Source: an uncultured delta proteobacterium (GTDB lineage Bacteria; Desulfobacterota; Binatia; UBA9968). From it: a stretch of DNA of 64,000 nt. The first letter of the stretch is position 1. Each line of letters starts with the position of its first letter. This document shows positions 48,059-48,495 of this stretch, one piece after another. A program made the translations under genes and the position numbers. The stretch is taken from NCBI GenBank assembly GCA_963745035.1, contig CAVUVW010000027.1, positions 299,743-363,742 of the forward strand, given 5' to 3'. The notes below the pieces were generated by a model. That model was given only the letters and a program-made list of their open reading frames with translations, did not search any database and was not told where the DNA came from.

Positions 48059-48088
48059 TTGACACGGACGATGGACGGCGTTACGAAT
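48059..48088 (+). promoter_or_regulatory. Putative sigma70 promoter for the structured non-coding unit
   Basis: Perfect TTGACA (48059-48064), 17 nt, then TACGAAT (imperfect -10); AT-rich UP-like tract upstream. Confidence 0.5.
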
Positions 48089-48092
48089 TGAG

Positions 48093-48495
48093 TAGCCCCA
48101 AACTCCCAAGGGGCGGGAAGAGCGAAAGGAGCAGGCTGTTGGCGCTCTTCTGGAAACGGAGGTTTTATGGCGGGAGAAGATAGTCCACCGGGCCATGTAG
48201 GCCCGCTGGCGGCGGGCGCGGGCAGTTCGATCGAGTTACCTGTCAGCCATCGAGCTGTGTGAATCAAGCCCTCAATCTCTGCGCCAAGTGGCGCGAACCC
48301 CAAGGCGGGGTCACTCAGCAGGTTGGGCTTCCTCAAAAGCAGACTCGACACCTCGGCGACGGGAGGCAAAATCGGACCAAGCCGGCGTAGCACGAGCAAG
48401 CGGGCTGCAGCGATAAAAATCAAATAAAACTTAACTGGCGCGATGGCGTCAACAAACGGGCGGACCGGTAAAAGGCTCCGCCCGTTTTGTTTTTT
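48093..48495 (+). ncRNA. Candidate large structured ncRNA (~400 nt), class unassigned
   Basis: No credible plus-strand ORF; at least 9 helices with G-U pairs and GNRA loops favouring the plus strand; lies between a promoter-like site and a terminator. Confidence 0.62.
48454..48495 (+). terminator. Intrinsic terminator (possibly bidirectional)
   Basis: AAACGGGCGGA / TCCGCCCGTTT 11-bp stem followed by TGTTTTTT. Confidence 0.85.

Follow-up and report, generated by a model that had tools for sequence, protein, structure and literature searches.

Several types of bacterial RNA that combine a short open reading frame (ORF) with regulatory structure, or that are large and structured in themselves, have been described. 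In the enterobacterial leaders of Mg2+ transporter genes (with the proline-codon ORFs mgtL and mgtP) and in the trp and his leaders, a short ORF preceded by a Shine-Dalgarno (SD) sequence holds its key codons in or near mutually exclusive hairpins, upstream of the genes. Arrest peptides (SecM, TnaC, SpeFL, RAPP/RAGP) carry a proline-bearing motif in the nascent chain, and the sequence of their ORF matters only locally. In the dual-function small RNAs (sRNAs) SgrS/SgrT, RNAIII/hld, SR1/SR1P and rnTrpL/peTrpL, a small terminated transcript contains both a short ORF and RNA structure, and sRNAs that contain a riboswitch, such as EutX/Rli55, employ a sensing module again in an RNA that stands alone. 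A last type is represented by OLE, ROOL, GOLLD, raiA and HEARO, multi-helix RNAs of hundreds of nucleotides that are supported by covariation and transcribed independently and that, to our knowledge, carry no conserved SD-led ORF. An element with likenesses to all of these is encoded in the 64,000-nt stretch of DNA analysed here (hereafter the window), which belongs to contig CAVUVW010000027.1 of an uncultured delta proteobacterium of the Binatia. It occupies the intergenic gap at window positions 47995-48505, between a YCII-domain gene and a convergent gene related to those for arylmalonate decarboxylase (AMDase).

The reading that we favour, with moderate confidence, is that this element represents a new stand-alone structured RNA with a leader peptide, in which ribosome pausing at Pro-Pro-Gly would set the fold, with an output on the AMDase-like gene or in trans. 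Its short ORF (sORF) and the placement of its key codons resemble those of mgtL/mgtP and of the trp/his leaders, and relatives of its module are found in front of genes as these leaders are. Unlike them, the element ends at its own terminator, facing a convergent gene, and the covariation of this terminator gives no sign of regulation; furthermore, the element is about 400 nt long, holds a covarying three-way junction 3' of the ORF and has no sequence similarity to them. It shares a proline-bearing motif with the arrest peptides, but its [ST]-P-P-G is located near the N-terminus (residues 6-9), which leaves little chain to contact the exit tunnel, and the putative pause would rest on the Pro-Pro bond and a hairpin 13 nt downstream. 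Compared with the dual-function sRNAs and with EutX/Rli55, the element is much more ornate, belongs to another lineage, matches nothing in Rfam and has no known target or seed. In contrast to OLE, ROOL, GOLLD, raiA and HEARO, it occurs in a single bacterial family among the genomes searched, and no Rfam model reaches it below an E-value of 1.

Judging by a conserved promoter and a terminator of its own, the RNA appears to be an independent transcription unit of about 400 nt, as had been proposed in a first-pass annotation made by a model from the letters of the window. The promoter (48059-48087, plus strand) consists of the -35 box TTGACA (48059-48064), a 17-nt spacer and a -10-like TACGAA (48082-48087). 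The -35 box, already recognized in that annotation, is TTGACA in 26 of the 27 aligned homologues and TTGACT in the other, with a TAnnnn sequence 17 nt downstream, and an A-rich tract is visible upstream of the promoter. Transcription probably starts near 48094. At the other end, the intrinsic terminator (48454-48495, plus strand), which had also been predicted, is formed by arms at 48454-48464 and 48478-48488 followed by a U-run to 48495. In the helix model described below, 94.6% of the cells in these arms are paired and both sides have changed at 9 of the 11 pairs. This hairpin was omitted by a consensus terminator scan, as its loop is longer than the limit of the scanner. An A-rich tract 5' of the terminator suggests that the same hairpin could also terminate the convergent gene, acting bidirectionally.

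The element is also found in RNA libraries. Its sequence is present in 20 runs from 12 studies, 17 of these runs being recorded as RNA (soil and rhizosphere metatranscriptomes), and at least half of the sampled words are present in 12 of the 20. Contigs from four RNA libraries (four studies, soil or rhizosphere) cover 48116-48463 at 99-100% identity, including one of 344 nt (48117-48460) with no differences, and variant contigs of relatives occur in RNA libraries as well. Of the region compared with these contigs (47600-49300), the parts in the flanking genes, 47600-47890 and 48512-49300, received no contig from the four runs, an absence that carries no weight as evidence. A promoter and a terminator of its own, together with presence of the RNA, are features that the element has in common with dual-function sRNAs. 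The discrete plus-strand transcript anticipated in the first-pass annotation is matched in sequence by these contigs, which do not give its strand or ends. The contigs end at 48116/48117 in two studies and at 48460-48463 in three, without loose ends, and this coincidence is at most a weak hint that the ends of the RNA lie there.

The RNA belongs to no described family. With Rfam 15 at gathering scores, nothing in the 64-kb window matches at the element, and the sole match is a tRNA gene (5750-5823, minus strand, 63.9 bits). When permissive filters were applied to 47950-48550, no model fell below an E-value of 1, the best (1.1) being a microRNA model on the terminator, and nine related loci gave no match in Rfam. 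Models for OLE, ROOL, raiA, GOLLD, HEARO, 6S, RNase P, the signal recognition particle RNA and riboswitches are all included in Rfam 15, and none of them matches the element; the earlier view that it fits no known class is upheld by this, and the kinship with OLE, ROOL or raiA considered at the same time is not. ARAGORN detected no tRNA or transfer-messenger RNA (tmRNA) gene in 47900-48600. The element does not show the tRNA-like domain and tag frame of a tmRNA, and its ORF has its own SD and ATG. In the literature consulted on non-coding RNAs of Binatia/Binatota and on structured RNAs from soil metatranscriptomes, which excludes supplementary motif lists, no such RNA was found.

Folding and comparative data support a conserved structure on the plus strand. 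The region 48085-48495 folds with -173.3 kcal/mol, compared with -152.5±5.5 in 100 dinucleotide shuffles (z of -3.78), none of which was as good, which settles favourably a check that had been set for the prediction; on the minus strand the z is -1.63 and 4 of 100 shuffles were as good. Twenty-seven full-length copies were aligned with MAFFT from sequence alone, and a model of 13 helices and 77 pairs was placed on this alignment. Standard pairs occupy 83.9% of the cells of the model, and sliding the 3' partners by one to three columns lowers this value to 36-43%. Both sides have changed at 51 of the 77 pairs, whereas shuffling the columns gave 30.4±2.9 such pairs and none of 500 shuffles attained 51. 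The covariation score is 0.280, compared with 0.168 in shuffles. For a model of the junction core alone (19 pairs), the values are 93.8% paired and 23-43% when slid. Covariation thus supports the fold, with P2, HP2, Ha, HP3 and the terminator as the best-supported helices, and the homologues with covariation that the first-pass annotation had looked forward to do exist. U-G is found in 21 of the 27 sequences at one pair of helix Hb (columns 170/202), and frequent G-U pairs indicate that the RNA strand is the plus strand, in agreement with the argument originally made. A 125-aa ORF on the minus strand (48046-48423) was considered as a protein and rejected, given that most homologous loci lack a minus-strand ORF of at least 90 aa across the element.

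The 5' part of the RNA contains two hairpins. HP1 (GCCCC/GGGGC, 48095-48114) is 80% paired, with both-side change at three of its five pairs, and is replaced in distant genera by GTCCT/GGGAC or CCCTG/CAGGG. HP2 (GAAGAGCG/CGCTCTTC, 48117-48150) shows both-side change at all eight pairs, and its 3' strand CUCUUC is also complementary to the SD, as an alternative pairing. HP2 encloses an inner hairpin, with AU in 12 and GC in 11 sequences at one pair, which in most homologues has a GCGCGC loop; in the window (48125-48142) it is shortened by a 5-nt alignment gap and lacks the loop held by most of the other 26 copies. This self-complementary loop might make a kissing or tertiary contact, and no covarying partner for it was found.

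Downstream of the B:C hairpin, which is described with the ORF, the long-range helix Ha (48221-48223 with 48381-48383) closes a domain of about 160 nt. It is 71% paired, with both-side change at 5 of 5 pairs and variants such as CAGC/GCTG, CGGC/GCCG and TGGC/GCCA. This domain contains the 3' end of the sORF, helices Hb (TTCGAT/ATCGAG, 48226-48231/48249-48254, 84% paired) and Pc (48255-48258/48339-48342, 90% paired), a three-way junction and a variable arm, P4. The junction (48266-48330), supported by covariation and by the covariance model R1, is formed by P1 (AAGCCC/GGGCTT, 91% paired), P2 (GCGCC/GGCGC, 94% paired, with all five pairs covarying and GC in 11 and AU in 12 sequences at one of them) and P3 (ACCCC/GGGGT), and its joining strand CA(A/C)UCAG(A/C)AGG is conserved. 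The weak arm P4 (53.9% paired) is possibly misaligned. The domain is followed by segment D (GCGGGC, 48400-48405), whose CGGGC is invariant in the 27 copies, by an A-rich single-stranded linker (48413-48435) and by HP3 (TGGCGC/GCGTCA, 48436-48441/48446-48451), 93.8% paired with both-side change at four of six pairs and with a nearly invariant stem core, ACGC...GCGT. All these features are on the plus strand. Among the helices folded by hand in the first-pass annotation, HP1, HP2, Hb, P1, P2 and P3 are retained across the 27 sequences. The CAATCT/AGGTTG extension of P1 is lost in distant genera, and the proposed CTCG-GCGA-CGGG hairpin falls in the variable region of P4, and neither was confirmed. 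Apart from that extension and the small hairpins of the variable region, the ornate fold proposed there is largely correct.

The same annotation had wrongly found no credible ORF on the plus strand and had considered the RNA purely non-coding, which is not supported. An SD (GGAGG, 48158-48162) followed by an ATG at 48167 opens a conserved frame of 31 codons that stops at TGA 48260-48262 (48158-48262 including the SD, plus strand), and its product is MAGEDSPPGHVGPLAAGAGSSIELPVSHRAV. A purine tract resembling an SD is found 4-10 nt upstream of the start codon in every one of the 27 homologues, with a variable spacer; the start codon is ATG in 26 of them and GTG in one, and the length is 29-32 codons in 23. 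With its SD and start codon in every homologue and an invariant Pro-Pro pair, the sORF shows what is expected of a leader-attenuator with sensed codons. Indels near its 5' end measure -6, -3 and +3 nt, and out-of-frame indels are confined to the 3' third. In the peptide alignment M1, P7, P8, P13, A16 and R29 are invariant. The codons of the Pro-Pro pair vary synonymously (CCA 21, CCG 5 and CCC 1 for P7; CCG 25 and CCT 2 for P8), and the pair is kept even where a change from GGC to TGC destroys the complementarity between segments A and B, as in genomes G062 (CCG CCT TGC) and G082 (CCC CCG TGC). A profile of 21 peptides retrieved 33 proteins at an E-value of at most 1e-3 among 1.84 billion cluster representatives. 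Four long low-complexity proteins were dropped, and all of the 29 short ones analysed, which derive from metagenomes where gene callers had predicted the sORF, keep the Pro-Pro pair. Neither Pfam nor NCBIfam contains a family that matches the peptide, and no hydrophobic stretch like that of a type I toxin is seen in MAGEDSPPGHVGPLAAGAGSSIELPVSHRAV when read by eye. From these comparisons we conclude that the first 20 or so codons (17-21) appear to be constrained as coding sequence and as RNA alike, and the remainder as RNA only. Confinement of the coding signal to this part points to a leader-type ORF rather than to a working protein, and the sORF is probably translated as such a leader peptide.

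The codons for Pro-Pro-Gly belong to a module of fixed geometry. Segment A (CCACCGGGC, 48185-48193, plus strand), recognized by codon comparison and alignment, carries these codons and is followed by a hairpin formed by B (GCCCGC, 48201-48206) and C (GCGGGC, 48212-48217), which occupies 48201-48217 on the plus strand and is 96.3% paired and essentially invariant in the 27 sequences. The spacer between A and B is exactly 7 nt in 29 of 29 copies (27 by regular expression, two by alignment). B and C are separated by 5 nt in 25 copies; one copy has 4 nt between them and another 26 nt. In this last variant (G082, locus L257), B and C are retained and the loop has gained a nested hairpin. A regular expression for the A-B-C module has a single match in the 7.4-Mb genome of the window. 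The single B is complementary to three invariant CGGGC segments, namely A, C and D, the last of them, identical in sequence to C, about 200 nt downstream. B:C is the only one of these pairings to gain support, because the nested-hairpin variant and the metagenome relatives keep it; B:D, if formed, would be expected to stack on Ha. When the second Pro codon is in the P site, B starts 13 nt downstream, the distance at which the mouth of the mRNA channel of the ribosome is located. From the fixed distance between Pro-Pro-Gly and the hairpin, a pause of the ribosome is predicted at this point.

The element is single-copy in its genome (28 contigs). At DNA level, BLAST was positive for 19 of the 36 further genomes searched from this family, with 69-79% identity, and for none of 24 genomes from two sister families. 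R1, built for the three-way-junction core from the homologue alignment, matched 31 of 90 family genomes, which represent 10 of 23 genera. Across the order, 31 of 123 genomes are positive, all of them in this family, with 0 of 33 in the other two families, and in a phylum sample of 151 genomes only that of the window is positive (0 of the 150 others). The count of 31 of 90 is a lower bound; the diverged copy of genome G074 escapes R1, and in it all three junction helices are retained with changed sequence. Sixteen regions with an AMDase-like gene but no R1 match were inspected, and with the filters off R1 gave no match below an E-value of 0.2 in them; by eye, a divergent copy was seen in one (that of G074) and none in five, and in four the end of the AMDase-like gene was not located by regular expression. 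Genome G005 is counted among the positives in these tallies and in that of the AMDase-like gene, and it entered an exploratory alignment and peptide list; it is excluded from the alignments behind the model and from all structure and sORF counts. Genome G035, which contributes only a paralogue at 32% identity to the tally of the AMDase-like gene, is not used. In a search of named GTDB records, 13 of the first 80 of 118 pattern matches pass R1, under the titles Candidatus Binatia (5), delta/Deltaproteobacteria (5), Thermodesulfobacteriota (1), 'Chloroflexota' (1) and 'Syntrophobacter' (1), and the remainder of those 80 are mostly chance GC-rich stretches.

Three assemblies deserve mention apart. 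Contig C275 of G012 (locus L313) holds a second complete copy, of the type of another genus (that of G031); this bin is listed at 9% contamination and the copy may stem from another organism. In G017 (L015/L021) and G028 (L008/L022), which are fragmented assemblies, contigs break within the element and the two ends overlap, which suggests strain variants of the RNA in those samples.

Outside the family, metagenomes were scanned with the pattern SD...ATG...CCRCCGGGC-N7-GCCCGC, and the counts that follow refer to the matches listed (80 loci). At least 16 of them have an R1 match at an E-value of at most 0.014. Among 65 matches negative for R1, nine have segment C as well as a TTGACA in the 150 nt upstream, four have one of these two features and 52 lack both. 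The nine with promoter and C form two groups, named B and C, that share the start of the sORF and the B:C hairpin. In group B (for example L210, L226, L238 and L250) the promoter is followed by a hairpin with the GCGCGC loop, by an ORF of 23-46 codons that starts M(M)EELTPPGQ or MADLSPPGH, by the B:C hairpin and by about 300 nt of further structure up to a terminator, with a co-directional gene 50-150 nt beyond. Group C (two full copies in L222 and one in L266) has a 10-codon ORF, ME[DA]H..PPG[HY]-stop, which ends just before B, and the SD and ATG of a signal-peptide gene about 150 nt after this mini-ORF. In L222, the minus strand carries the two full copies (SDs at oriented positions 2523 and 4481) and a partial one near 50, in tandem; each copy precedes a signal-peptide gene, and a second upstream mini-ORF (MMAFFQRF...) is repeated with them. 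These loci were pre-selected by the pattern, and independent support comes from the co-occurrence of promoter and C and from the shared 5' hairpin. A search of 400 genomes across the phylum with the pattern gave 4 other matches, compared with 5-6 in a reversed control, which is chance level, and groups B and C are accordingly left without taxonomic placement.

In these relatives the same sORF module appears to serve as a cis 5' leader. The first-pass annotation had ruled out such a role; this holds for the locus of the window, where the gene downstream is convergent, but not for the metagenome relatives, the only ones in which a same-strand gene of the kind regulated by leader-attenuators follows. 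A broader proposal can be derived from them, namely that the Pro-Pro-Gly mini-ORF and its fixed hairpin are a widespread pause sensor that is a 5' leader elsewhere and has been fused here to a three-way junction. We advance it only tentatively and consider it rather doubtful.

The AMDase-like gene is the most constant neighbour of the element. According to tblastn, 22 of 28 genomes, from at least nine genera, carry it downstream in convergent orientation, at 11-238 nt from the element in 21 of them and at 1103 nt in one; of the six genomes without it, three have less than 710 nt of contig left. The upstream neighbour varies between a YCII-like gene and one that we take to be 3-hydroxyisobutyrate-dehydrogenase-like from its motif IGLIGLGNAGRP.

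Sequence comparison shows an architecture made up of two 5' hairpins, the invariant B:C, the Ha-closed domain with its three-way junction, the A-rich linker, the 3' hairpin and the terminator, to which the favoured reading adds steps that we infer, from translation and pausing to refolding and an effect on the AMDase-like gene. The kept N-terminal peptide, M-x-G-E-D-S-P-P-G...P-L-x-A-G, would be translated as a leader, and slow formation of the Pro-Pro bond, together with the B:C roadblock 13 nt from the P-site codon, would make the ribosome pause. The position of the ribosome would then choose between the local hairpin and the long-range closure, so that the fold would report the capacity for translation elongation (supply of Pro-tRNA or EF-P). 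In the weakest step of the proposal, the folded and terminated RNA would accumulate, and its most likely output would be exerted either on the AMDase-like gene that converges on it, the two sharing the bidirectional terminator, or in trans, by way of the A-rich linker and the junction strand, which is exposed.

Several observations weigh against this reading. Regarding translation, 4 of the 27 sORF copies are shifted or truncated (27, 37, 40 and 52 codons), and 6 of the 29 metagenome representatives read Trp (TGG) where the others have the TGA stop. In these proteins (P0005, P0007-P0010 and P0014) the frame is seen to run on into the three-way junction (...HRA[AV]WIKPS...). Entropy by codon position is weakly periodic (0.77, 0.67 and 0.81) and not decisive either way. 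P13, A16 and G9 show no synonymous change because their codons lie in hairpin strands, and constraint on segments A, B and C at the RNA level explains part of the apparent conservation of the peptide. The predicted accessibility of the SD (partition function, 21 of the 27 rows) is mixed, ranging from 0.0 to 1.0 with a median of 0.47, and therefore uninformative. As to refolding, A, B, C and D are invariant, and covariation is consequently silent on the choice among A:B, B:C and B:D. The RNA-library contigs give neither strand, ends nor level of the RNA. Finally, an AMDase-like homologue of at least 68% identity occurs in 46 of the 90 genomes of the family, and in G014, G003, G002, G106 and G110 the same upstream genes lie directly beside this gene, and the element is absent from the junction; the dependence is one-way, as the AMDase-like gene does not need the RNA. 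C and D also stay CGGGC where the 3' arm of the terminator has changed (G031, G067, G065, G062 and G069). The arms covarying only with each other while C and D are fixed, there is no sign of regulated read-through, and the terminator looks constitutive.

An alternative that we regard as unlikely is that the RNA is purely non-coding and acts through its fold only, by binding a protein or ligand or by base pairing. The GGAGG that resembles an SD, the start codon and the open frame would then be by-products of RNA constraint. The strong covariation, the weak codon periodicity, the lack of conservation of the C-terminal half of the sORF as a protein and the coincidence of the synonymously invariant P13, A16 and G9 with strands A, B and C are in line with it. 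However, it leaves unexplained why an SD precedes the start in all homologues at a distance that is not fixed, why the lengths of indels close to the 5' end of the frame are divisible by three, why Pro-Pro is retained through synonymous codons even in the two genomes where A:B complementarity is lost, and why relatives retain a 10-codon ORF that stops right after Pro-Pro-Gly.

Similarly improbable, in our opinion, is an ordinary small-protein gene in which the peptide of about 31 aa is the effector and the folds merely stabilize or tune its mRNA. The SD, the ATG and the length common to most homologues would suit it, as would the coverage by RNA-library contigs and the eight of 29 metagenome representatives of exactly 31 aa. 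Nevertheless, three different frames are used for the last 10-14 residues (...HRAA, ...IELRESSPQ and ...SSCLNQALNPST among the 29 representatives), with the stop moved or lost in many members. Other relatives have ORFs of only 10 or 24 codons, the most conserved and covarying part of the RNA is 3' of the stop codon, and the peptide matches no protein family.

The weakest alternative, a cis antisense attenuator in which regulated read-through of the terminator into the AMDase-like gene lowers its expression, could draw on the recurrent convergent gene beside a variable upstream neighbour, on related metagenome elements that, in the manner of attenuators, terminate just before a co-directional gene and on repeated CGGGC/GCCCG segments that could compete with the terminator arms, but we consider it very unlikely, since the arms covary only with each other with C and D fixed, all members share a long, GC-rich terminator stem and a U-run, several close relatives have the AMDase-like gene without the element, and the shared bidirectional terminator, with its A-tract, hairpin and U-tract, could by itself preserve the synteny and keep the genes together. 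The idea that C or D might act as an antiterminator by pairing with the 3' arm of the terminator was discarded, as no matched change is found where this arm differs.

As for the flanking genes, both identities assigned in the first-pass annotation agree with the profile searches. The ORF upstream, with its 3' end at 47994, matches PF03795 (YCII, 3.2e-13). The convergent gene (48506-49219, minus strand), a conserved neighbour outside the RNA, encodes a protein of the Asp/Glu racemase superfamily that matches PF17645 (Amdase, 1.2e-32); its score of 111.8 bits against the NCBIfam arylmalonate decarboxylase model, whose cut-off is 225, is the reason for the name AMDase-like. Divergent from it, 49406-50446 (plus strand) encodes an NMT1/THI5-like periplasmic binding protein (PF09084, 5.8e-12), which could hint at the substrate of the AMDase-like protein. 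On the other side, a 543-aa ORF (45680-47311, minus strand) with TNAHVV and GNSGGP motifs adjoins the YCII gene in several homologous loci and looks like a trypsin-like serine protease of the HtrA/DegP type.

Large bacterial RNAs with covariation support and no described family are rare, and the host in this case is an uncultured soil lineage. The union of an ornate RNA domain with a leader-type mini-ORF that holds Pro-Pro at a fixed distance from a hairpin is unusual, and a pause read out through RNA refolding is a hypothesis testable in vitro. Annotation pipelines miss or mis-call both the element and its sORF, and a covariance model would clean this annotation. The existence of cis and stand-alone forms allows their comparison and suggests a wider regulatory family. 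If the broader proposal of a pause sensor were true, this would be a riboregulator responding to EF-P or prolyl-tRNA, used elsewhere as the leader of genes for secreted proteins, and coupling the status of translation to a trans or antisense output.

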